Source: Candidatus Brocadiaceae bacterium (lineage in GTDB: Bacteria > Planctomycetota > Brocadiia > Brocadiales > Brocadiaceae). From it: a DNA stretch of 21,964 bases. Positions within the stretch are counted from its first letter, which is position 1, and the number at the start of each line of letters is the position of its first letter. The stretch lies in assembly GCA_030650655.1 (NCBI GenBank), contig JAUSDH010000177.1:1-21964 (forward strand). Reading direction: 5' to 3'. Shown in pieces: positions 5,393 to 20,465 of the stretch. Under the pieces are notes generated by a model. It made no database searches. It worked only from the letters and a program-made list of their open reading frames with translations, and was not told where the DNA came from. A program made the position numbers and the translations under genes.

Positions 5393-5423
5393 TTTTTATT
5401 TTATTCCTTAAACTGATTGTATC

Positions 5424-5460
5424 AAAAAAAGCGCCTTATGCGAGACAAGGCGCTTTTTTT
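5424..5460. terminator. Bidirectional intrinsic terminator (A7-GCGCCTT-loop-AAGGCGC-T7)
   Basis: Read directly. 7-bp GC-rich stem (5431-5437 / 5447-5453), 9-nt loop, flanked by an A7 run on one side and a T7 run on the other. Lies 36 nt downstream of the small Cys-rich gene on the minus strand. Confidence 0.6.
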
Positions 5461-5495
5461 ATTGAAACTACAAAAGTACTATAAAATTGTTATAT

Positions 5496-5657
5496 TTATT
5501 TGTGACAAGGGCAGGGATCTGTTTTTCCCTTTTCACATTTATCTGCACACTTCGCATCTTTTGGGCAGCCACAAGCTGCTGCAAAAATACTAGTCGTACC
5601 AACAGTGATAATTAACGCGCCAACAAACGCCATTGTTATACCAACCTTCTTCAACAT
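5496..5657 (-). CDS. Small secreted or lipid-anchored Cys-rich peptide (53 aa), function unknown
   Basis: Below the ORF-track size cutoff; hand-translated as MLKKVGITMAFVGALIITVGTTSIFAAACGCPKDAKCADKCEKGKTDPCPCHK. Strong SD 'aaaggaga' 8 nt upstream of the ATG. Hydrophobic signal sequence ends in 'AAAC' (lipobox-like). Followed by its own intrinsic terminator. Confidence 0.55.
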   Translation of the reverse strand: MLKKVGITMAFVGALIITVGTTSIFAAACGCPKDAKCADKCEKGKTDPCPCHK

Positions 5658-5971: not shown

Positions 5972-6445
5972 ATGCCACAGGAAATATTAGCAGATTTAGA
6001 GACTTTAGATTTAAACAAATCGATTGTAGACATCGAGACCATTCGCTCCATTATACCTCATCGTTACGAGATGGAGCATCTCAGCGGTATTATAAAATTC
6101 GACCCAGAACAGGGTATTATCATAGGTTACAAGGACGTTTCCCAGAATGAATTCTGGGTGCGAGGACACATTCCTGGTCGACCGCTTATGCCAGGGGTAC
6201 TCATGCTGGAGGCTGCTGCACAACTGTGCACTTACTATTATAAAATGACTACCCAAGATGATCGATTCCTGGGTTTTGGGGGTATTGATAAAGTCAAGTT
6301 CCGTGGAAAGGTTGTGCCGGGTGATAGACTCATCCTCATTGCAAAAAACAGAGAATTGCGCGCACGGAGGGCTATTTTTGATACCCAAGGTGTAGTTGAT
6401 GGAAAATTGGTGTTTGAAGGGGTCATTATAGGTATGGTAGTGTAA
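5972..6445 (+). CDS. FabZ/FabA-like hot-dog fold 3-hydroxyacyl-ACP dehydratase (stand-alone paralogue)
   Basis: 'GHIPGRPLMPGVLMLEAAAQL' has the catalytic His and Glu in the FabZ motif HxPxxPxxPGVLxxEAxAQ. 157 aa. Confidence 0.8.
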   Translation: MPQEILADLETLDLNKSIVDIETIRSIIPHRYEMEHLSGIIKFDPEQGIIIGYKDVSQNEFWVRGHIPGRPLMPGVLMLEAAAQLCTYYYKMTTQDDRFLGFGGIDKVKFRGKVVPGDRLILIAKNRELRARRAIFDTQGVVDGKLVFEGVIIGMVV

Positions 6446-12162: not shown

Positions 12163-12579
12163 TCAATTATGTAAAAGATACTTGTCAGAATGAGCGACTC
12201 TGTGTAAATCCATAATATTTATAATTTTTATTTTCAACTGATACTCTTCTTGTGGATATTCTTTTTCAATCTTTTCCAACTGCGGTGAGTAACCATTCAA
12301 AACAGCTACCACATTTTTCGAGACCGCTCTGCCAACTATTTGATATCCCGTATCGGTCTTTGCGTCATAAATAGCAATAGATATATTCAGATTTTCAAAA
12401 ATATTTTCTATAGTTTTTTTGCAAAACCACGACTTGAAAGCTACATGTTTATTGTCTGATAAAAAAGTTAAATCTTTAGCAACAGCGAGGTGTACCTCTT
12501 TCTTTTGGTTTGATGTTGCCACATAAAATAGTTCAACTTTTTTACTAAAATCTCTAATTCGATTCAGAATATTTTCCAT
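12163..12579 (-). CDS. Possible pyridoxamine-5'-phosphate-oxidase-like (FMN-binding split-barrel) family protein
   Basis: 138 aa. The pattern 'VELFYVATSN..KEVHLAV.........VAFKSWFCKKTIENI.EN.NISIAIYD.....GYQIVGRA' resembles PNPOx-like small flavoproteins. Assignment by pattern only. Confidence 0.4.
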   Translation of the reverse strand: MENILNRIRDFSKKVELFYVATSNQKKEVHLAVAKDLTFLSDNKHVAFKSWFCKKTIENIFENLNISIAIYDAKTDTGYQIVGRAVSKNVVAVLNGYSPQLEKIEKEYPQEEYQLKIKIINIMDLHRVAHSDKYLLHN

Positions 12580-12619
12580 GACACAACCGTCGAACTCAAA
12601 ACCAAGATTATTATCAATT

Positions 12620-12660
12620 ATAAAGGCACATCAACAGTTTTGAAATTGATGTGCCTTTAT
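12620..12660 (-). terminator. Hairpin terminator closing the ACP-to-radical-SAM operon
   Basis: Perfect 15-bp inverted repeat ATAAAGGCACATCAA (12620-12634) / TTGATGTGCCTTTAT (12646-12660) with an 11-nt loop, 33 nt downstream of the radical SAM stop. On the transcribed strand the A/T-rich base of the stem is followed by 'aattgataataat' rather than a clean U-run. Confidence 0.6.
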
Positions 12661-12692
12661 AAATTTCATTAAGAATTCATGTTTTAATGTAT

Positions 12693-14153
12693 TTATGTGG
12701 TTACTGTTTCCATAACGGGTTTTGAAACAGGTACTGCACTTGATTTGTACCAGTCCTGATAATAATCGCCTGAATCGTATAATTCCTTTAAATTCTGCAA
12801 TACTTGTTCAAAGACCTGCTTCCAATCTGAACCTACCCTGAACGCAAACATGGAGTTTCGGGGATTCTTTGTTGTTTTAATTGAGTTTCTGAATCGTGTT
12901 CTTAGATTATCACCTGCATAAATATGGTCGTAAACATACTGCATGCCGTCAATAAAATCTTCTAATGTCATGTCTACGAAACGGTGTACCACATGGGCTG
13001 TATCGTAGTATTGCCAATCCTCTGGATAGTTTTTCCTGAAGATCCTCTTTTCTGAATCAAGTCTTGCATAGAGTTGTGTCTTGGGGAATGGACAGTTAAT
13101 ACCAAAGGTGAGAATATCAATATTGTTTTCCAATATAAATTCAGTCATTCGCTTAAAAGAATCTTTGCCATCTCCATCGGCTCCAAATACTACGGAGCCC
13201 CAGACAACCAAGCCGGCATTATGTATCTTTTGTATACAATCATAATAACTATCGGTACCCAACTTCAGATTTACACGTTTATTCATTTTCTCCAAAACGG
13301 CCTCATTCGTAGATTCTATACCGATAAGCATACCAAAATTGCCGCTCTTGGCCATATAATCTAATATTTCAGAGTCTTGAGAGATGTTTAACGCAGTGAA
13401 TCCTAGCCAATCTTTGTGTATTCCACGTTCCACCATTCCCTTGAAAAGGTCTCTCGCCCTCTCGTTTGATTTTTTACCATGACCATAGAAGTTATCTTCC
13501 GCCAACATCAATCCCTTGTAATCTGTGGCTGCCATCTCATCGAGGACATCTCCATAAGGTCTTTCCCTGAATTTTCTGCCCTGGAATGTGGGTACACTGC
13601 AAAAATCACAATAGTTCGGGCATCCTTTTGTTGTTACGATGGAAGAAAATTTATAATTGTATTTTTTCTTCAAGAATTCTCGATTTGGATATACCTTCTT
13701 CATCAAACTGAGGGGAGGTAATCCACCCTGATAGACCTTTTTCAGTTTTCCCTCTTCGAAGTCTTTTATAACCTGCGGCCACACTTCTTCTGCCTCACCC
13801 ACAAAAACAGCATCAACGTAATTTGCAGCTTCTTCTGGCACAACAGATGCATGTATTCCACCCATGATTACAGTCATGCCCTTTTTCCTGCAAGCGGCAG
13901 CAATCTTATAGGCCCTGGGTGATTGATAGGTAACCGCTGTAATACACACAAGGTCAACCGGTTTAAAAGTGATTTCGTCTTTGTCATTCATTGCTAATTC
14001 AATATTTTCGTCGATAACGTCAAATTCCCAATCACCGGGTGTAAGAGCAATAACGTAGGCAAGATTTAAAGGCATTTGGACGATTACCGTAATACTCTCT
14101 TCACCATGCCTACCCGGTTTATGTGGATTAATTAACATCATTTTTCTACTCAT
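12693..14153 (-). CDS. B12-binding-domain (class B) radical SAM enzyme
   Basis: Radical SAM cluster motif 'GCPNYCDFC' (Cx3Cx2C), preceded by a ~150-aa Rossmann-like cobalamin-binding-type domain ('DLVCITAVTYQSPRAYKIAAACRKKGMTVIMGGIHASV'). ATG at 14153 lies 11 nt after GGAGG. The track ORF begins at a TTG at 14171, which would overlap the desaturase gene by 10 nt. Confidence 0.85.
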   Translation of the reverse strand: MSRKMMLINPHKPGRHGEESITVIVQMPLNLAYVIALTPGDWEFDVIDENIELAMNDKDEITFKPVDLVCITAVTYQSPRAYKIAAACRKKGMTVIMGGIHASVVPEEAANYVDAVFVGEAEEVWPQVIKDFEEGKLKKVYQGGLPPLSLMKKVYPNREFLKKKYNYKFSSIVTTKGCPNYCDFCSVPTFQGRKFRERPYGDVLDEMAATDYKGLMLAEDNFYGHGKKSNERARDLFKGMVERGIHKDWLGFTALNISQDSEILDYMAKSGNFGMLIGIESTNEAVLEKMNKRVNLKLGTDSYYDCIQKIHNAGLVVWGSVVFGADGDGKDSFKRMTEFILENNIDILTFGINCPFPKTQLYARLDSEKRIFRKNYPEDWQYYDTAHVVHRFVDMTLEDFIDGMQYVYDHIYAGDNLRTRFRNSIKTTKNPRNSMFAFRVGSDWKQVFEQVLQNLKELYDSGDYYQDWYKSSAVPVSKPVMETVTT

Positions 14154-14161
14154 ATTTTTAT

Positions 14162-15616
14162 TTACCTCCAATTCTCCATAATTAAATTAGCTACGCTCCA
14201 CCCCGAAGAGACAACGGCACAAATCCCAGGACCTGGTTTTGTCCAATGACCTGTTAAGTATAAATTTTCAATCGGTGTCTTCTGGGGAAGCCTGTTCTCC
14301 CACATTTGGTCTACAGAGGCCTCCCAGCCATAAGCGGCTCCGTTTGTGTTTGATGTGTAACGTTCCAGGGTTTTCGGTGTAGCTGACTCTCTTACTTCTA
14401 TGTATTTATTTAAATCCGGAATATATGATTCTAATCGATTGATCGTTTGTAACGTCATACTTTCTTTAAAAGATTTCCAATCGGTAACGCTTTTATACAT
14501 CGCTTTATTCAAATAGACAACCACAGATATTATTTGTTTATTTGAAGGTGCAAGGGCAGGACATATTTTTGTTGGAACGGAGATATATAACCATTCTTTG
14601 TCCATGGTACTTGCATCTGTGGCCGTGTGATAAAACCCTCTCTTTAACTTAGTTAAATCTACATCACCTCCAACACCTAAATATAAAAGGAAAAAAGAGC
14701 AACTTTCTTTCATCCCCTCGATTTTTTTAAGGAAGGATGAATCCATTTTACCTTCTAATAAATCAATGAAAGTCTGCCGGGCATCAATATTCGACACAAC
14801 TAAGCCGGATGAAATTTCATTGTCATTCTGTAACTGAATGCCTCTTACGTAATTATCATTCAGAAGGATTTTTTTGACTCTTGATGATAGCATAACGTGT
14901 CCGCCAAAATCAATAAATTTCTTAAAAATTGCATTAGCAAACTCTTGCGTACCACCCACAGGGAAAAATGCGCCATCTTTGAGATAATTGATCATCATTT
15001 GACACATTGCAATAGCAGATGCCTGAGTAGGGGGGAGACCTATATATCCCCATTGGCCGGCAAGTATCATCTTGAGTTCGTCGTTCTTAAAAAAGGCATC
15101 TAACATCTCGCCATATGTTTGGTCCTTATATTTGTCGATAATTTGACTTTTTTCATTATTAAATGTAGCACGGTAGAGTTTTATGAAATCCTGAAAAAAA
15201 TCTTTAATATTACATTTTTCCAATAGATACCGATCCTGTAAACGTGCGATATACTCGTCCAGGTCGGCTGGAATTTCAATGCTGAAGTTGTGAAAAATGA
15301 GGTGATCCATTGGGTCGAGAGAATAGAAATCCATTTCAATCCCAAGCGTCTTAAGACAGCGACCGACAACGCTCCACTTTCCGCAACCTCCGATATGGTG
15401 AACTGCTGCATCAAAGGTAAAGCCCTTTCGCTTAAAAGAAGTACAATACCCGCCAGGAATGAAGTGTTGTTCCACCAGGAGAACTTTTTTCCCACATTTG
15501 GCAAGAAATGCAGCACACACCAAGCCTGCAATGCCTGCACCAATAATAATCGCATCATAATAAGGATATAACTTATCCTTTTTTGTGGATTGAATATACG
15601 TATCGGAAGACAGCAT
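14162..15616 (-). CDS. Phytoene-desaturase (CrtI/CrtN)-family FAD-dependent oxidoreductase
   Basis: 'YDAIIIGAGIAGLVCAAFLAKCGKKVLLVEQHFIPGGYCTSF' dinucleotide-binding motif and overall CrtI-like length (484 aa). C-terminal 'LYLTGHWTKPGPGI' FAD-binding motif. Starts 3 nt after the upstream KS-like stop. Confidence 0.85.
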   Translation of the reverse strand: MLSSDTYIQSTKKDKLYPYYDAIIIGAGIAGLVCAAFLAKCGKKVLLVEQHFIPGGYCTSFKRKGFTFDAAVHHIGGCGKWSVVGRCLKTLGIEMDFYSLDPMDHLIFHNFSIEIPADLDEYIARLQDRYLLEKCNIKDFFQDFIKLYRATFNNEKSQIIDKYKDQTYGEMLDAFFKNDELKMILAGQWGYIGLPPTQASAIAMCQMMINYLKDGAFFPVGGTQEFANAIFKKFIDFGGHVMLSSRVKKILLNDNYVRGIQLQNDNEISSGLVVSNIDARQTFIDLLEGKMDSSFLKKIEGMKESCSFFLLYLGVGGDVDLTKLKRGFYHTATDASTMDKEWLYISVPTKICPALAPSNKQIISVVVYLNKAMYKSVTDWKSFKESMTLQTINRLESYIPDLNKYIEVRESATPKTLERYTSNTNGAAYGWEASVDQMWENRLPQKTPIENLYLTGHWTKPGPGICAVVSSGWSVANLIMENWR

Positions 15617-15619
15617 GAA

Positions 15620-16861
15620 TTACGGTTTGTATTTGGAGATAATTAATGATGAATTATTTCCTAATCGCGAGAATGAGTTTATAAGGACGTTTTTGACTGG
15701 GACAGCCCGGCAGTTGTTTGGCACGTAATCTAAATCACATTCTACATCAAGTTCCTTATAATTTATTGTGGGCGGAATTGTGTGTGTTTTGATGGACATC
15801 AATGCGGCTATTGTTTGTAATGCACCCGAGGCGTCAAAACATTCACCTGTCATAGATTTGATGGCTGACACAGGGATAAGTTTTGCCCGCATGCCAAATA
15901 CCTCTTTGATAACTTTGGTTTCAAGAGCATCACCATGAACACCGGAATAGGCATTAGCAGAAATATAGGAAATGTCATGCAGTGTCAGATTGGCGTCGCT
16001 AATGGCGTTCATAATGGCTCTCTTGTTACCGTCAATTTGATATTCTTTGCTGACGGCCATTTTAGGCTCGAATGCAGTTCCATAACCCTTAACCTCTGCA
16101 TATATGTGCGCATTTCTCTTCAATGCATCTTCCAAAGTTTCAAGAATAACCAATGCCGATGCTTCGCCAATAATCATTCCATTTCGCCGCTTATCAAATG
16201 GAGCACAAATTTCCAGCGTCCCATTCTTGCTGCCAGCCAGTATCTTTGAATTATGGGAGCCCCAAAATATGTCATGGGTTAAACCATGTACGCCGCCAAC
16301 AACGACCGCCTTTACACGACCCATCCGAAGGAAATCAGAGGCATAAATAATCGCATCGATACCGCTTGTTACGCCGTTTGAAATGGTAGTATTGAGTCCG
16401 GTGGCTTTACAGAAAATAGAGGCACGGCTTGCGGGTGCATTCAACACGGTGTTAGGAAAGTCCATGGGATTGACATAACTAGGACCTTCACGCAAAGACT
16501 GGAAATCAAAGGAACTGATGCTGTCAATACTTCCATAGGTAGAGCCAACAACAATGCCTAGTTCATCACCGCTATAGGTATTATTTTCAAGGTTCGCATC
16601 TTTTATGGCAAGAACCGTTCCTGATGATACAAGGAGTGAGGTTCTATCGATATGTCGGATTCCTTTTTGACCAAGATAAATCTTGGCATCAAAATCAGAG
16701 ATTTCTCCAGCCTGTTTGCTATTAAATTTACTTACATCAAACAGGGTGACAGGTTTTATACCCGATACACCTTCGGTTAAATTTTTCCAAAAAACATCCT
16801 TGTCTGACCCGAGAGGAGAGATAACCGAAACACCTGTAATAACGATTCTCGCTTTTTCCAT
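15620..16861 (-). CDS. Ketosynthase-like protein lacking the catalytic triad (KS-beta / chain-length-factor-like partner)
   Basis: Full-length thiolase/KS fold, collinear with the adjacent KS, but Cys->Val ('TISNGVTSG' vs 'ITTACAAG'), His->Asn ('SANAYSG' vs 'SAHGTGT') and His->Glu ('KSMTGECF' vs 'KSMIGHTM'). ATG at 16861 follows 'gaagg'; the track starts one codon earlier at a GTG at 16864. Confidence 0.85.
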   Translation of the reverse strand: MEKARIVITGVSVISPLGSDKDVFWKNLTEGVSGIKPVTLFDVSKFNSKQAGEISDFDAKIYLGQKGIRHIDRTSLLVSSGTVLAIKDANLENNTYSGDELGIVVGSTYGSIDSISSFDFQSLREGPSYVNPMDFPNTVLNAPASRASIFCKATGLNTTISNGVTSGIDAIIYASDFLRMGRVKAVVVGGVHGLTHDIFWGSHNSKILAGSKNGTLEICAPFDKRRNGMIIGEASALVILETLEDALKRNAHIYAEVKGYGTAFEPKMAVSKEYQIDGNKRAIMNAISDANLTLHDISYISANAYSGVHGDALETKVIKEVFGMRAKLIPVSAIKSMTGECFDASGALQTIAALMSIKTHTIPPTINYKELDVECDLDYVPNNCRAVPVKNVLINSFSRLGNNSSLIISKYKP

Positions 16862-16874
16862 CACAAACCTTCTT

Positions 16875-18095
16875 TTATCCTGTGAACTTTTTTACAACCA
16901 GACAGCTATTGTTACCGCCAAATGCATGGGCATTGTTCAAAGCAATAGTTACCTGTTGTTTTCTCATAACATTAGGTACATAATCCAGATCACATTCAGG
17001 ATCCGGCGTTTCATAATTTATTGTAGGAGGAATGATATCGTTCTGGACAACTAATGCGCAAGTAATTGCCTCAATTGCACTGGCCGCACCCATGGTATGC
17101 CCAATCATGGATTTTATTGAACTAATTGCAAGGTTCTTGGGTTTATTCCCGAACACCTTTTTAATTGAAATCGTTTCAGCCTTGTCATTGGCAGGAGTTC
17201 CCGTTCCATGTGCGCTAACATACTGGACATCTTCAGGACTCAGGTTTGCGTTTTTTAAAGCCTTTTTCATGGCAGAGACAACACCTTCACCGTCGGGATG
17301 TGGTATAGTAATATGGTACGCATCACAGCTAAGCCCATAACCGATAATTTCAGCATAAATATTCGCATTTCTTTTTGTTGCATGGTCAAGCGATTCCAGA
17401 AGAAGCATTCCTGCACCTTCGCCCACCATCATGCCTTTCCTGTTTTTGTCAAAGGGCTGGCAGATATCAGGGGCAATAGCGCCCAGTCTGGCGAATCCCG
17501 TATAGGCAACTTTCGAAAAAGGATCCGAGCCACCGGAAAGCATCATGTCCACCCTTCCAAATTTAATCAAGTCACAGGCATATCCAATTGCATAATTACC
17601 CGCGGCGCAAGCAGTGGTGATAATCGTATTAGGACCTTTCAAGCCAAACTCAATAGCAATATTAGCCGGGATATTATTACACGGATGCATCAAAAACAGG
17701 TCAGGAGCAACTTTGTCTTCACCTTCTTTATGCCTGATATAATTGACTTTCTCCAGGATTTGTATTTCACCAGCGGTTGTTCCTACAGAAACCCCAATCC
17801 GTTCTAAATCAACTATACTCAAATCAAGCTTTGCGTCGTTTAAGACCAGCTTTGCGGCTGCTATCGCAAACTGAGAACCTTTGCCAATATTTTTAAGGAC
17901 GCCATTTTTTATATAATCCGAATAAGTAAAATTTTTAACTTCACATCCTTTATGTACCTTATAGCCTGAAGTATCTATGCACGTCACGTCGTCCACTCCA
18001 GACACCCCTGCAATAAGGGCATTCCAAAATGTGTCCTTGCCCGACCCGATAGGGGTGATCATTCCTACGCCTGTTATCACAACACGTTTATTCAT
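16875..18095 (-). CDS. fabF: Beta-ketoacyl-ACP synthase II-type ketosynthase (intact Cys-His-His triad)
   Basis: '[13 protein letters not shown]' (active Cys), '[14 protein letters not shown]' and '[12 protein letters not shown]' (both His). 406 aa. Starts 3 nt after the FabZ stop. Confidence 0.9.
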
Positions 18096-18098
18096 AAA

Positions 18099-18551
18099 CT
18101 ATACCAAAGCACTTTTTTCTGCGATGCCAAAGGTCAACGATGCCTTAGCAACGGTTTTTTCTTCAACTTTTACCGTTGCCTGAACAATAGCTCCCTTGGA
18201 GACAATTTTCTCCACGATGATTTCTATAAAGAGTTGGTCGCCGGGGAATACAGGTTTTGTAAACCGTGCATTATTAATGGATGCCAATAAAAAAACGGTA
18301 TTCTTGTCGTTTTGCTGGGTGGGAAGGCTCTTCCTGAATAAGATAATAGAAGCCTGTGCCATCGCCTCGATGATCAAGACCCCCGGCATGATAGCAAAAT
18401 CAGGAAAATGTCCGACAAAGACGGGTTCGTTGCCGGATACATTTTTTACACAAACAATTTTTTTCCCTTCTTCGAGATCAACAACCTTATCAATAAATAG
18501 AAAAGGGTATTTTTGAGGGAGAAGAGATCGAATTTCCTCAAATAGTATCAT
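18099..18551 (-). CDS. fabZ: 3-hydroxyacyl-ACP dehydratase
   Basis: 'LLPQKYPFLFIDKV' and 'GHFPDFAIMPGVLIIEAMAQAS' give the canonical FabZ His/Glu motif. 150 aa. Confidence 0.9.
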   Translation of the reverse strand: MILFEEIRSLLPQKYPFLFIDKVVDLEEGKKIVCVKNVSGNEPVFVGHFPDFAIMPGVLIIEAMAQASIILFRKSLPTQQNDKNTVFLLASINNARFTKPVFPGDQLFIEIIVEKIVSKGAIVQATVKVEEKTVAKASLTFGIAEKSALV

Positions 18552-18654
18552 CGTAAGTATGCTTTTTTTGTGTTAATCATGTAAAGTATTACTCGGTAAT
18601 ATTGCTGCACAATAATATGGCGCTCTAATTTATTTTTAAATTTTTAATAAAGTT

Positions 18655-18704
18655 TTACCACCTTTATCTACCGTTTATTAAGAAGGGTAAGTAAAGGGTG
18701 GTAA
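18655..18704 (-). other. Imperfect hairpin in the ACP-FabZ spacer (possible partial terminator or processing site)
   Basis: TTACCACCTTTA (18655-18666) pairs with TAAAGGGTGGTAA (18692-18704): 12 bp with one bulged G and a 25-nt loop. On the transcribed strand it lies 37 nt after the ACP stop and is followed by A/T-rich sequence. Confidence 0.3.
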
Positions 18705-18740
18705 TTGGTTTGTGTCTTGCTGCGCTATGTATCAAGCATC

Positions 18741-19010
18741 TTATGAGGTGAGTTTGCCGCTTTCTGCCAATACTGATTTTGTTAAATTAATTGTCGCGTT
18801 TAATGAGGTAATATCTACTAGCTTTTCTTCAGGTATCTGCACTTTGAACTTCTTTTCAATGAGTGCTAGAATTTCAAGGGCTAAGAGGGAATCTATCTCA
18901 AGGTCTTTAAAGAAATTTGCATCTCTTTTGTCCCAAATCTCCTTTTCGTCTAACTCAGTAACCTCAGCGACGATTGCGGTTACACCTTTTTCAATCTCTC
19001 CAGCGTCCAA
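18741..19010 (-). CDS. Acyl carrier protein (dedicated, divergent from housekeeping AcpP)
   Basis: 89 aa, acidic, with phosphopantetheine attachment motif 'LEIDSLLALEIL' (DSL). TTG start 6 nt after a strong SD 'aaaggagga'. The antisense 105-aa track ORF has no recognisable features. Confidence 0.85.
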   Translation of the reverse strand: MDAGEIEKGVTAIVAEVTELDEKEIWDKRDANFFKDLEIDSLLALEILALIEKKFKVQIPEEKLVDITSLNATINLTKSVLAESGKLTS

Positions 19011-19046
19011 AATTATCCTCCTTTATTAAACGACCTAAACAAAAGA

Positions 19047-19183
19047 CACATATATAACTCTGTTGATTAAGTCCCCAAAACACTCATTTTTGAAGAATAT
19101 CGATTTCGTAACCCATTGATAAAACGACACTTAATTTTTGACATTTTTGTAAAAACAGAGTTAATCAACAGATACATATATAT
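19047..19183. repeat. 21-nt imperfect inverted repeat pair flanking a 90-bp spacer in the operon leader
   Basis: Perfect 12-nt cores TCTGTTGATTAA (19059-19070) and TTAATCAACAGA (19161-19172). Arms extend outward to 18/21 matches through 'atatat' tracts. Starts 37 nt upstream of the ACP start codon. Confidence 0.6.
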
Positions 19184-19211
19184 TCATAGTAAATTGAAAA
19201 TAACGAAAAAT

Positions 19212-19240
19212 ATAGTAGCAGACATAATTTATATTGTCAA
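19212..19240 (-). promoter_or_regulatory. Candidate sigma70-type promoter for the ACP operon (TTGACA-17 nt-TACTAT on the minus strand)
   Basis: Minus-strand -35 TTGACA is the complement of 19235-19240. 17-nt spacer. The -10 TACTAT is the complement of 19212-19217 (4/6 match). This would give a ~195-nt leader containing the inverted repeat. Weak evidence in AT-rich DNA. Confidence 0.25.
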
Positions 19241-19299
19241 TAATATTCTTTAACTCGGTAGAAAAGAAATTATTAAGTATCGAAATTAAATTTAAAGGC

Positions 19300-19322
19300 A
19301 CACCATCAACTGATTGTGGTGT
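19300..19322 (-). terminator. Possible weak terminator hairpin between the hypothetical gene and the ACP operon promoter
   Basis: ACACCATCAA / TTGTGGTGT gives a 9 bp stem with one bulge and a 4-nt loop. On the minus strand it is followed by 'gcctttaaatttaattt'. Confidence 0.25.
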
Positions 19323-19590
19323 TAGTTCGTAGGTAAAAGCTTATGCTCTGATACTGGGTCTTACTGGCATTAGGGGAGGAATAAGTTCACGCCGATTGCA
19401 GCCAAAACTTAAAAATCCGCAAACCTCACGAAAGCAAAAATTTCATCGGTAGAGCAGTACACACAACCAAATTTACAACGTCTGATAATATATATTATGT
19501 TACAATAAAAAGCAGCTTTAACAAACCTTGGGTATTCGCATCTTTTTGGCTCTGTATTCCAAACTCACCTTTCATCAAAACGCAACACAC

Positions 19591-20202
19591 CTATTTTGCC
19601 TTCCTTGGTGACCTCTTTTCTGATATTGATCCATGTTGTCTGAGTTTATCCAGTGCACTTAATGCCTTATATATTTGTCTTTCTAAAATGGTCTCATATT
19701 TAGATAATTCCTCAAGCCTATTTTTACCCTCAGTTATTTTTAATGCCTTTAATTGAGATAGTTCTTTATTTGTCCTTTTTCTAGTCCTAAAAAATCCCCG
19801 CTCGTACTCTTGAATGCAAGACGACTCAAACTCTATTATTTGACTTTCTATCTTCAAACACCGTTTCAATCGCCAGATACTAGAAACTATGCGATCCACA
19901 AGAATTGATTCTATTTCTCCAGAAGGTTTTAATTCTTTTAAAAGCTTGTTTCTGATCTCGTCAAGTGCAGATGCACATTCCCCTTCTATTAATATTTCGC
20001 TGCTAAAGATATAATGCCTTGCGGTACTCTCTGCAGGTTTTACTGTTTCGGAGGTTGTTTTGCTTTCTTTACTTTCTGATTTTGGCGGGTTTGATTGCAC
20101 GGGCAGTTTAACTATTGTATTCATTATCTTATCGACCTTTTCTTTGTTGCTGGTTTCCTTATTTCTCCTACGCAAAATATCTTCTTTCAATATCGTTGCC
20201 AT
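19591..20202 (-). CDS. Hypothetical protein (203 aa): Lys/Ser/Glu-rich N-terminal half, predicted helical/coiled-coil C-terminal half
   Basis: Long ORF. I place the start at the ATG at 20202 (MATILKEDIL...), 4 nt after a strong SD 'gggagga'. The track's extra 41 N-terminal residues have no RBS. I recognise no family motif. Confidence 0.6.
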   Translation of the reverse strand: MATILKEDILRRRNKETSNKEKVDKIMNTIVKLPVQSNPPKSESKESKTTSETVKPAESTARHYIFSSEILIEGECASALDEIRNKLLKELKPSGEIESILVDRIVSSIWRLKRCLKIESQIIEFESSCIQEYERGFFRTRKRTNKELSQLKALKITEGKNRLEELSKYETILERQIYKALSALDKLRQHGSISEKRSPRKAK

Positions 20203-20465
20203 AATTCCTCCCTTTCTTGTTTCGGAAATATCCGCAGGGTAATAGTTATATTTATTCTGAACGGAAAACGAAGAATCTAAAATTAGATTTGAACATACTA
20301 TCTCATAATTGATGAAATTATTCAATAAATATTTTTAATAATACACTGATTTCCCTTATAAAATTGGAATAAATTGGGTTATAAACAACTCTGTCGTATA
20401 CAATTTAAATTATACAATAGTACGGAGCTTGCTTTACTCCCACATATTTAATAAAATTAAAATCT

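Follow-up and report, generated by a model that had tools for sequence, protein, structure and literature searches.

What is made by a compact set of genes that has an acyl carrier protein (ACP) of its own, a pair of ketosynthase-type proteins and a radical enzyme, and does it lead to ladderanes? The question is raised by a six-gene block on the minus strand of a 21,964-nucleotide stretch of contig JAUSDH010000177.1 (assembly GCA_030650655.1) from an uncultured Brocadiaceae bacterium; this whole stretch is what we call the window. The biosynthesis of ladderanes has been an open question since 2002, and the consensus candidate for it is a gene cluster of Kuenenia, kuste3603-3608, known as Cluster I. 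We consider it practically certain that the block in the window is the orthologue of Kuenenia Cluster I, and we think it probable that the block has a role in ladderane synthesis.

The literature on Cluster I of Kuenenia comprises Rattray 2009 (PMC2649909), Javidpour 2016 (PMC4790861), Dietl 2023 (PMC10139942) and Granatino 2026 (bioRxiv 10.64898/2026.05.19.726425). The genes kuste3603 to kuste3608 encode, in this order, an ACP, a FabZ, a FabF, a non-canonical FabF, a phytoene desaturase and a radical S-adenosylmethionine (SAM) protein (PMC4790861; bioRxiv 10.64898/2026.05.19.726425). Under the name Cluster I, the products are amxACP, amxFabZ, amxFabF2, amxFabFmut, a phytoene-dehydrogenase-like protein and a B12 radical SAM protein (bioRxiv 10.64898/2026.05.19.726425). 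An earlier note on this DNA, made from the sequence alone, had named the kuste3603-3608 tags and the gene order, and both agree with these sources. Open reading frames (ORFs) and domain scans with Pfam and NCBIfam place the six genes of the window at 19010->12693, all in one direction and where the earlier note had put them, as follows (KS stands for ketosynthase):

18741-19010, minus strand: ACP, 89 aa; TTG start, AAGGAGG 7 nt upstream, DSL phosphopantetheine site.
18099-18551, minus strand: FabZ, 3-hydroxyacyl-ACP dehydratase (amxFabZ orthologue), 150 aa; PF07977, 96.6 bits.
16875-18095, minus strand: active KS (amxFabF2 orthologue), 406 aa; PF00109 and PF02801.
15620-16861, minus strand: KS-like paralogue without the catalytic triad (amxFabFmut, chain-length-factor-like), 413 aa; ATG start.
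14162-15616, minus strand: FAD-dependent oxidoreductase of the CrtI/CrtISO family ('PDH', kuste3607 orthologue), 484 aa; PF13450 and PF01593.
12693-14153, minus strand: B12 radical SAM protein (kuste3608 orthologue), 486 aa; ATG start; PF02310 and PF04055.

Pfam and NCBIfam support every domain call in the block. From 5' to 3' the intergenic gaps are 189 nt between ACP and FabZ and then 3, 13, 3 and 8 nt; the last four are exactly those that had been given before, and the ACP gene is indeed started by TTG and led by a Shine-Dalgarno sequence. The ATG starts of the KS-like and radical SAM genes are those of the gene calls on a contig (L001) that encodes identical proteins. A GTG at 16864 is a further open start of the KS-like gene, and homologues cover the full length of the 486-aa radical SAM form. 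Within the six genes the scans find no ketoreductase (KR), enoyl reductase (ER), acyltransferase, thioesterase or phosphopantetheinyl transferase (PPTase), as the earlier note had also read the block, and no FabD, FabG, FabH or FabI; a KR or ER is not found by them in the window either.

The identification with Cluster I follows from E-values against solved protein chains that range from 1e-44 to 1e-249, from signature residues in FabZ, KS and the chain-length-factor-like (CLF) subunit, and from gene order. The PDB entries concerned, 7AUF, 8AYD, 7QV0, 9S5H and 9S5I (Barends laboratory), appear from their molecule names and entry composition to be structures of amxACP, amxFabZ and the amxFabF heterodimer. 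The ACP (PF00550, 52.9 bits) matches 7AUF_A at E 1.9e-44 with 80 of 87 aligned residues identical, and 9S5I_E at E 9e-42 with 76 of 79; going by the papers, we take both chains to be amxACPs. Since it also falls below the acpP equivalog TIGR00517 (50.3 against 70.45 bits), by its sequence it is an ACP of the amxACP type and not a canonical AcpP. The FabZ matches 8AYD at E 3e-76 and 7QV0_A at E 8e-60. In the alignment it has the catalytic His48 and Glu62, an Ile (Ile69) in place of the canonical glycine of the acyl tunnel, and Thr98 and Val117 in place of the basic residues that dock the ACP; the signature criteria were taken from PMC10139942 (non-basic positions 96 and 115 in S. brodae), and an E. 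coli sequence served as the reference. The amxFabZ enzyme dehydrates 3-hydroxyacyl-amxACP up to about C8 and refuses canonical ACP (PMC10139942).

The active KS matches 9S5H_B at E 2.7e-249, has an intact triad (Cys163-His296-His333) and stays below the fabF equivalog cut-off (469 against 494 bits). Its partner matches 9S5H_C at E 1.5e-242 and has Val163, Asn298, Lys328, Glu333 and Arg392, so that the triad is replaced by Val/Asn/Glu; the residues at all five positions are identical to those of Kuste3606 in Table 2 of PMC2649909. Judged by these residues, the KS-like paralogue is catalytically dead. The corresponding proteins of Brocadia fulgida form a heterodimer, and such a KS/CLF-type heterodimer decarboxylates malonyl-amxACP and favours C6-C8 chains in crosslinking assays (bioRxiv 10.64898/2026.05.19.726425).

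Conservation differs among the six proteins; it is highest in the radical SAM protein and the ACP and lowest in the flavoprotein. Between the window and Scalindua the radical SAM protein is 78-82% identical and the flavoprotein 56-61%. The two top NCBIfam matches of the flavoprotein, carotenoid isomerase (174 bits) and crtI_fam (170 bits), are both under cut-off, and it matches the CrtI structure 4DGK at E 1e-23. It is 73-77% identical to the proteins of Kuenenia, Brocadia and Jettenia, and among the 120 matches listed all its relatives are at least 58% identical and anammox-type where named. We rejected an assignment as a CrtI phytoene desaturase (TIGR02734, 169.9 against 238 bits; kuste3607 did not replace CrtI in vivo, PMC4790861).

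The radical SAM protein passes the Pfam cut-offs for both of its domains (PF02310, 38.2 against 32.1; PF04055, 46.8 against 29.5), and the three cysteines of its CxxxCxxC motif (C178, C182 and C185) are invariant in an alignment of 39 sequences. It is 86% identical to the protein of Kuenenia stuttgartiensis (P0008). An AlphaFold2 model (pLDDT 90.5) has the class B fold, and the best fold matches are AprD4, MgmA, TsrM, CysS, TokK and OxsB, at 14-18% identity. The protein is thus classed from its domains as a class B (B12-binding-domain) radical SAM enzyme, and its use of cobalamin is predicted. The search with the modelled fold settles the class and not the chemistry, as the neighbours include methylases and non-methylases. 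AprD4 has a B12 domain, although descriptions of the enzyme have it work without cobalamin. The structures of two class B enzymes, TokK and CysS, were solved with pantetheinylated substrates, which makes a carrier-tethered substrate plausible for the enzyme of the window. TIGR04072 (rSAM_ladder_B12) was considered as its family and rejected, with 84.9 against 360 bits.

The earlier note had offered the block as the most likely undescribed system of the window. This does not hold: the cluster has a name, for four of the six proteins there are solved structures that match closely, the identification of such a block is already published and near-identical loci are present in public metagenome-assembled genomes (MAGs).

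How constant is the arrangement? A genome scan with the radical SAM protein as query, over one genome per GTDB species and finding close relatives only, returned 71 loci. Nearly all are labelled as Brocadia, Jettenia, Kuenenia, Loosdrechtia, Scalindua, Anammoxibacter, or as Brocadiales or unnamed Planctomycetota MAGs, so the origin in Planctomycetota suggested before is borne out, the closest genomes to the block being Brocadiales. Identities of the radical SAM protein are 95-98% to groundwater and lake MAGs, 92-95% to Brocadia and Jettenia, 86-87% to Kuenenia and 78-82% to Scalindua. For the count of synteny these 71 loci were taken together with 80 metagenome loci, and loci with a GC content of up to 0.47 were classed as low-GC. 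All 76 long low-GC loci have the order ACP, FabZ, KS, CLF, PDH, radical SAM, which excludes a chance arrangement; a further 20 low-GC loci are collinear fragments that break off where the contig stops, and no locus has a changed order. Conservation of the flanks is limited to Brocadiaceae, and in Scalindua they are unrelated. Since the order is kept while the flanks change, the six genes behave as a self-contained unit, as the earlier note had supposed. From the closest loci, which are Brocadiaceae MAGs with 90-98% identity of the radical SAM protein, and from the flanking synteny with Brocadia, Jettenia and Kuenenia, the host belongs to Brocadiales and would be an anammox bacterium; the window itself has no hydrazine-synthase gene.

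One locus (L071) lies on a contig binned as Thermodesulfobacteriota. It is a Scalindua-like copy of the block (GC 0.39, ACP 89% identical) and is probably a binning error, not a true non-anammox carrier.

The cluster has been stated to occur only in ladderane producers (PMC10139942; bioRxiv 10.64898/2026.05.19.726425), and the earlier note asked whether the block is restricted to them. It is present in every Brocadiales locus sampled, but collinear blocks also occur in high-GC contigs that are unlike Brocadiales. All six genes have collinear homologues, with 32-57% identity, in at least six distinct contigs of 55-69% GC (L073-75/L083, L085, L089, L091, L082 and L079 have complete blocks), against 35-47% GC in Brocadiales. 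These carriers are assigned by the names that depositors gave, by GC content and by the genes nearby, and their relatives bear the labels Acidobacteria, Planctomycetota or Myxococcota. With these blocks, exclusivity to ladderane producers falls away as an argument. The earlier note would take the block as refuted for ladderanes if it were common in bacteria that make neither these nor other unusual lipids; the high-GC blocks go part of the way, as their carriers are outside the known ladderane producers but may make unusual lipids of their own. The mechanistic papers cited here do not mention collinear blocks outside Brocadiales, and antiSMASH 'ladderane' calls in other phyla were reported earlier without an analysis of their content.

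The radical SAM protein of the window has relatives at 52-63% identity. One of them (P0094) carries the depositor name 'Acidobacteria bacterium 13_1_40CM_2_60_7' and is found on 60% GC contigs of four independent assemblies (L073, L074, L075 and L083). Its neighbourhood consists of an ACP, a FabA/Z-type dehydratase, a KS, a KS-like protein, a CrtI-family protein, the B12 radical SAM protein, a ketoreductase of the short-chain dehydrogenase/reductase (SDR) family and a divergent FabH, with GH28 and apiosidase genes as flanks. On L073 the identities to the window are 54% (ACP), 49% (dehydratase), 57% (KS), 38% (KS-like), 44% (CrtI-family) and 57% (radical SAM). Complete collinear blocks are also present on L085, L089 and L091 (GC 0.55-0.69). 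On L082 (GC 0.57, a 'Planctomycetota bacterium' MAG) the block is followed by a second radical SAM gene, a KS, a CLF-like gene and an SDR, and on L079 (GC 0.66) it has two inserted genes and then a long tail of further KS pairs; a cyclase-like gene and an FGE-sulfatase-like gene are also added on L079. Nine shorter high-GC contigs carry collinear fragments. Directly downstream of most complete high-GC blocks there is an SDR, and some have a FabH or a second unit of radical SAM, KS and CLF. Compared with Brocadiales the neighbours differ and include glycoside hydrolases or Ser/Thr kinases. In all high-GC homologues examined the active KS has an intact triad and its partner lacks the cysteine; the isoleucine of the dehydratase tunnel is present in most of them, and the dehydratases match Pfam families of the aryl-polyene ApeI/ApeP-like kind. 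That the second radical SAM protein of the fused high-GC clusters is a kuste2803 orthologue was considered and is not supported: the copy on L082 is a tandem duplicate of the first one (96% support) and the copy on L079 branches elsewhere.

An intermediate version is found on a soil contig of 50% GC (Ga0070741_10000951, 95 kb). Its block (L130) is 46-80% identical to the proteins of the window (ACP 80%, radical SAM 62%), and about 10 kb away there is a group of KS, CLF and two radical SAM genes (L119). Neighbours on this contig include a molybdopterin oxidoreductase and a 1110-aa protein of the CarboxypepD_reg/outer-membrane-barrel type, a type which we take to be abundant in Acidobacteria.

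A neighbour-joining tree of the radical SAM proteins puts those of Brocadiales Cluster I into a clade of their own with 100% support. The high-GC proteins are closer to this clade than the two paralogue clades are, and the node that excludes the latter has 94% support. One paralogue clade is of the kuste2803 type, the other of a stand-alone type whose named members are from Brocadiales or related lineages. Brocadiales-type genomes hold at least three members of the subfamily: the Cluster I copy, the kuste2803-type protein (52-54% identity) and the stand-alone protein (56-58%). Across all contexts the commonest neighbour of the radical SAM gene is a KS with a triad-less partner, and the association is seen in several architectures (L076, L078, L079, L081, L082, L090, L119 and L140).

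A few members of the subfamily stand apart. The stand-alone paralogue (L080, 9001-10425; P0070, P0079 and P0098), which where named is from Brocadiales, Bathyanammoxibius and Hypogeohydataceae, adjoins on L080 genes for lipid transport of the MlaD/E/F type and for the futalosine pathway. The Anammoxibacter MAG OFTM214 has, apart from its complete cluster (L054), a solitary second radical SAM protein of the Cluster I type (L065, 9998-11419; 73% identity) among unrelated regulatory genes. The nearest outgroup proteins (34-38% identity) are tandem pairs in Lentimicrobium MAGs (L070, 8801-15235, and L067), beside genes for FabH, an SDR, a GT2 glycosyltransferase and an acyl-AMP ligase, in what looks like another lipid cluster.

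What, then, could the block do? If the pathway that we propose is correct, the six genes would be expressed as one transcription unit, with a conserved promoter near 19240 at its head and a hairpin near 12620 at its close. The dedicated amxACP would carry the intermediates, and the KS/CLF heterodimer would start the chain by decarboxylation of malonyl-amxACP, as both have been shown to do in close orthologues. Ketoreduction would be borrowed from elsewhere in anammox genomes. Because none of the blocks has an ER and a KR lies beside most of the complete high-GC homologues, elongation would yield a short unsaturated acyl-ACP and not a saturated fatty acid. The CrtI-family flavoprotein would then probably adjust the double bonds in number or geometry, by desaturation or by cis/trans isomerisation, and the B12-type radical SAM enzyme would carry out radical C-C bond chemistry while the chain is tethered to the ACP, probably in step with elongation. 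The latter is favoured by the position of the radical SAM gene, which is mostly beside a KS/CLF pair. For anammox bacteria we expect, as the most likely end product, the ladderane part of the membrane lipids. Taken as a whole, a Cluster I orthologue that works in this way on the path to ladderanes is the explanation that we lean towards, with moderate confidence. The high expression of kuste3603-3608 in their native host (PMC4790861) is a point in its favour. Ring formation by the radical SAM enzyme specifically is a more tentative proposal, which we would not yet favour over its negation.

Several points weigh against an assignment to ladderanes. No experiment ties any Cluster I protein to ladderanes. 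The genes kuste3603-3608, expressed in E. coli, gave no new fatty acids and no ladderanes, in agreement with what the earlier note had stated, and kuste3607 did not replace CrtI (PMC4790861). Methyltransferases make up the majority of the characterised class B radical SAM enzymes, and the fold search cannot separate methylation from cyclisation. The short-chain preferences of the orthologues were measured with saturated or crosslinking substrates, not with native intermediates. Finally, there are the high-GC collinear homologues described above.

These last are also the starting point of the alternative that survives best. According to it, anammox bacteria and high-GC soil carriers have a product in common which is no ladderane but a specialised short polyene or another tailored acyl chain. 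The ladderane rings would be made by other genes (for example kuste2802-2805 or the kuste3335-3352 region), or only with their help. Besides the six-gene collinear homologues outside Brocadiales, it can draw on the likeness of their dehydratases to ApeI/ApeP-like families and on the highly reducing type II polyketide synthases (PKSs), in which KS/CLF, dehydratase and KR in combination without an ER are polyene-forming logic. A further point for it is that nothing was obtained from the six genes in E. coli (PMC4790861). However, the block is universal in the Brocadiales loci sampled, the radical SAM protein is under strong constraint there and the Brocadiales proteins form their own fully supported clade. 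No alternative product is known in anammox bacteria, and the soil carriers could themselves make related strained lipids. We therefore regard a non-ladderane product as unlikely, but as an idea to be reckoned with.

The next alternative is that the radical SAM protein is a C-methyltransferase and that the block makes methyl-branched fatty acids, not ladderanes. Anammox bacteria also contain methyl-branched fatty acids. The nearest folds include the methylases MgmA, TsrM, CysS and TokK, the neighbouring families in NCBIfam are those of HpnR, PhpK and the MCR glutamine methylase, and one source annotates the Kuenenia protein as a bacteriochlorophyllide methyltransferase. Yet these NCBIfam matches are far under the family cut-offs, the fold matches have only 14-18% identity, and neither the best of them, AprD4, nor OxsB is a methylase. 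Mid-chain methylation, moreover, needs no dedicated ACP, KS/CLF pair or special FabZ, and the block offers no reason for a CrtI-family enzyme in it. Such an activity seems to us improbable.

A redundant housekeeping type II fatty-acid synthase operon, which the passing of general NCBIfam cut-offs by FabZ (NF000582, 156 against 113 bits) and KS (NF005589, 450 against 387 bits) could suggest, is hardly conceivable for a block without FabD, FabG, FabH and FabI, whose ACP is below the acpP cut-offs, whose second KS lacks the entire catalytic triad and whose FabZ orthologue rejects canonical ACP, the more so as Kuenenia has a separate canonical cluster, kustd1386-1391 (PMC10139942; PMC4790861). The earlier description of the block as a specialised module finds its support here, the active KS being below the fabF equivalog cut-off as well.

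The proposed transcription unit, to return to the pathway towards ladderanes, is bounded and interrupted by the following non-coding signals:

19478-19507, minus strand: conserved 30-nt element ATTGTAACATAATATATATTATCAGACGTT with an internal AT palindrome, upstream of the promoter-like site.
19212-19240, minus strand: promoter-like site of the sigma-70 type, TTGACA-17 nt-TACTAT with TG before the -10 box; 10 of 12 consensus matches.
18655-18704, minus strand: imperfect stem-loop with an A/U-rich run after it, within the 189 nt between ACP and FabZ; spacer fold -31.9 kcal/mol, z -3.1.
12618-12662, minus strand: closing hairpin, terminator-like but without a clean U-tract; 18 pairs, -24.3 kcal/mol, z -6.6 against shuffles.

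The earlier note had spoken of a non-coding leader of about 580 bp. The interval 19011-19590 is indeed 580 nt long and has no ORF of more than 46 aa, but with a promoter-like site inside it (19240-19212) the predicted 5' untranslated region is likely to be about 200 nt, so that not all of the interval is leader. The TTGACA box and TGCTAC(C/T)AT are kept in Brocadia, Jettenia, Kuenenia, Loosdrechtia and the clade of the window. The 30-nt element is nearly invariant in 14 Brocadiaceae loci, where the adjoining sequence has fully diverged, but no copy was found in the Kuenenia loci. A regulator may bind to this element. The sequence of the ACP-FabZ spacer is kept only in the window's own clade, and its length differs among genera. 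Its predicted stem-loop is possibly a partial terminator that raises the amount of ACP transcript relative to that of the enzymes. The perfect 15-bp hairpin claimed for the end of the operon exists and is longer than that, with 18 pairs. Its core, AAAGGCACATCAA...TTGATGTGCCTTT, is kept in Brocadia, Jettenia, Kuenenia and Loosdrechtia, where the loops vary and a few G-U changes occur; because the stem is almost invariant, the alignment speaks for conservation and not for covariation. The hairpin is absent in Scalindua, and in Anammoxibacter an unrelated strong hairpin occupies the same place. At E up to 1, Rfam finds no riboswitch or known RNA in the 580-nt upstream interval or in the 189-nt spacer. 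Its sole match in the window, to the Bacillus small RNA ncr1015 (5423-5538, minus strand), is sub-threshold (35 against 60 bits, E 0.096), lies in the leader of the rplM-rpsI operon and is probably due to chance.

In Brocadiaceae the block is flanked upstream by QueC, QueE and a 244-aa protein, and downstream by lipoamide dehydrogenase (Lpd), glucan phosphorylase, a HAD hydrolase and a divergent FabZ-like gene. The gene of the 244-aa protein (19591-20325, minus strand) is co-directional with the block and directly upstream of it; the protein has no Pfam or NCBIfam match and is syntenic in Brocadiaceae except Kuenenia, with 49-91% identity. Just past the closing hairpin there is a 138-aa gene (12163-12579, minus strand) with a sub-threshold PNPOx-like match (23.9 against 28.1 bits); it is outside the conserved unit, as it is present only in the clade of the window and in some Brocadia loci. 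The divergent FabZ-like gene (5972-6445, plus strand, 157 aa; 112 bits against the 155-bit fabZ cut-off) has a threonine at the tunnel position and retains the basic docking residues. It keeps a constant relative position downstream of the block across Brocadiaceae, with 80-94% identity. Farther away, at 1226-2633 on the minus strand, the gene of a 143-aa repressor of the BlaI/CopY type overlaps that of a 336-aa membrane protease similar to BlaR1/HtpX; the two form an ordinary pair of sensor and repressor and have no relation to the block.

To the search for the route to ladderanes the window adds one orthologue from an uncultured, groundwater or freshwater-type lineage of Brocadiaceae. The premise that the cluster is exclusive to ladderane producers is weakened, and the high-GC blocks provide new material for comparison. 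They point to additions for a reconstitution (a KR, possibly the genes of kuste2802-2805) and to organisms worth a lipid analysis. A further speculation can be made. The block might not be an invention of anammox bacteria but one branch of a wider family of lipid clusters that combine a B12 radical SAM enzyme with KS/CLF in soil bacteria similar to Acidobacteria, Planctomycetota and Myxococcota, and these non-anammox carriers might make cyclobutane-containing or otherwise radical-cyclised acyl chains. We think that this is rather unlikely. If correct, the high-GC clusters, which encode their own KR and in some cases a FabH or a second unit of radical SAM, KS and CLF, would show the full list of parts, which the anammox block lacks, and the route to ladderanes could perhaps be solved with enzymes or hosts that are easier to handle.

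How does the block compare with systems that are already known? The best-scoring NCBIfam model for its radical SAM protein, TIGR04072, describes a 'lipid biosynthesis B12-binding/radical SAM protein' with the same domain plan. The machinery of cispentacin, with AmcB (ACP), AmcE (FabZ-like cyclising decarboxylase) and the KS-like pair AmcF/AmcG, is likewise an ACP-tethered, ring-forming line of FabZ- and KS-like proteins. The window proteins all score under its NCBIfam cut-offs (FabZ against AmcE, 101 of 140 bits; KS against AmcF, 240 of 325; ACP against AmcB, 19 of 80), and in cispentacin the five-membered ring is formed without a radical SAM enzyme.

Of the components of type II PKS systems with KS/CLF, the window has a KS pair and a dedicated ACP but no KR, which is found beside most of the complete high-GC homologues. 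At the position of the active-site Cys of KS, the CLF-like subunit of the window has Val, and the CLFs of aromatic type II PKSs have Gln. In the highly reducing type II PKSs with KS/CLF pairs (those of ishigamide, with Iga11/Iga12, and of aryl polyene clusters), too, the ACP is a discrete protein, the KS is paired with an inactive partner and the dehydratase is of the FabZ type. We know of no CrtI-family or radical SAM partner in them. Iga11 (PDB 6KXD) is among the better matches of the KS, at E 2.6e-100, and the analogy between the anammox pair and this class has been drawn before (bioRxiv 10.64898/2026.05.19.726425).

Within anammox bacteria, the cluster kuste2802-2805 (PPTase, the B12 radical SAM protein kuste2803, FabF and a non-canonical FabB) resembles the window in that a paralogous radical SAM gene of the same subfamily (52-54% protein identity) is directly followed by a KS and a triad-less KS, whose triad positions are Phe/Asn/Glu as in Kuste2805. 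It differs in that its radical SAM protein belongs to a separate clade with 100% support. It is also without an ACP, a dehydratase and a CrtI-family gene, and has instead a PPTase, a protein similar to old yellow enzyme (OYE) or dienoyl reductase, and an enoyl-CoA hydratase. A locus of our collection (L076/L077, 10001-16966) matches it, with PPTase, radical SAM, KS, CLF (Phe/Asn/Glu), OYE/dienoyl-reductase-like and enoyl-CoA hydratase genes.

The closest known system is Cluster I of Kuenenia itself. At the level of lineages the window departs from it in its 189-nt spacer with a stem-loop, in its longer 5' region and in the extra 138-aa gene after the terminator, and its host is of a different, uncultured lineage of Brocadiaceae, nearer to Brocadia and Jettenia (radical SAM protein 93-95% identical) than to Kuenenia (86-87%). 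The six genes and their order are nevertheless the same, the proteins are 74-94% identical to those of the Kuenenia loci (L026 and L028), and the two have in common the triad substitutions of the KS-like protein, the FabZ signatures, the promoter and the closing hairpin.

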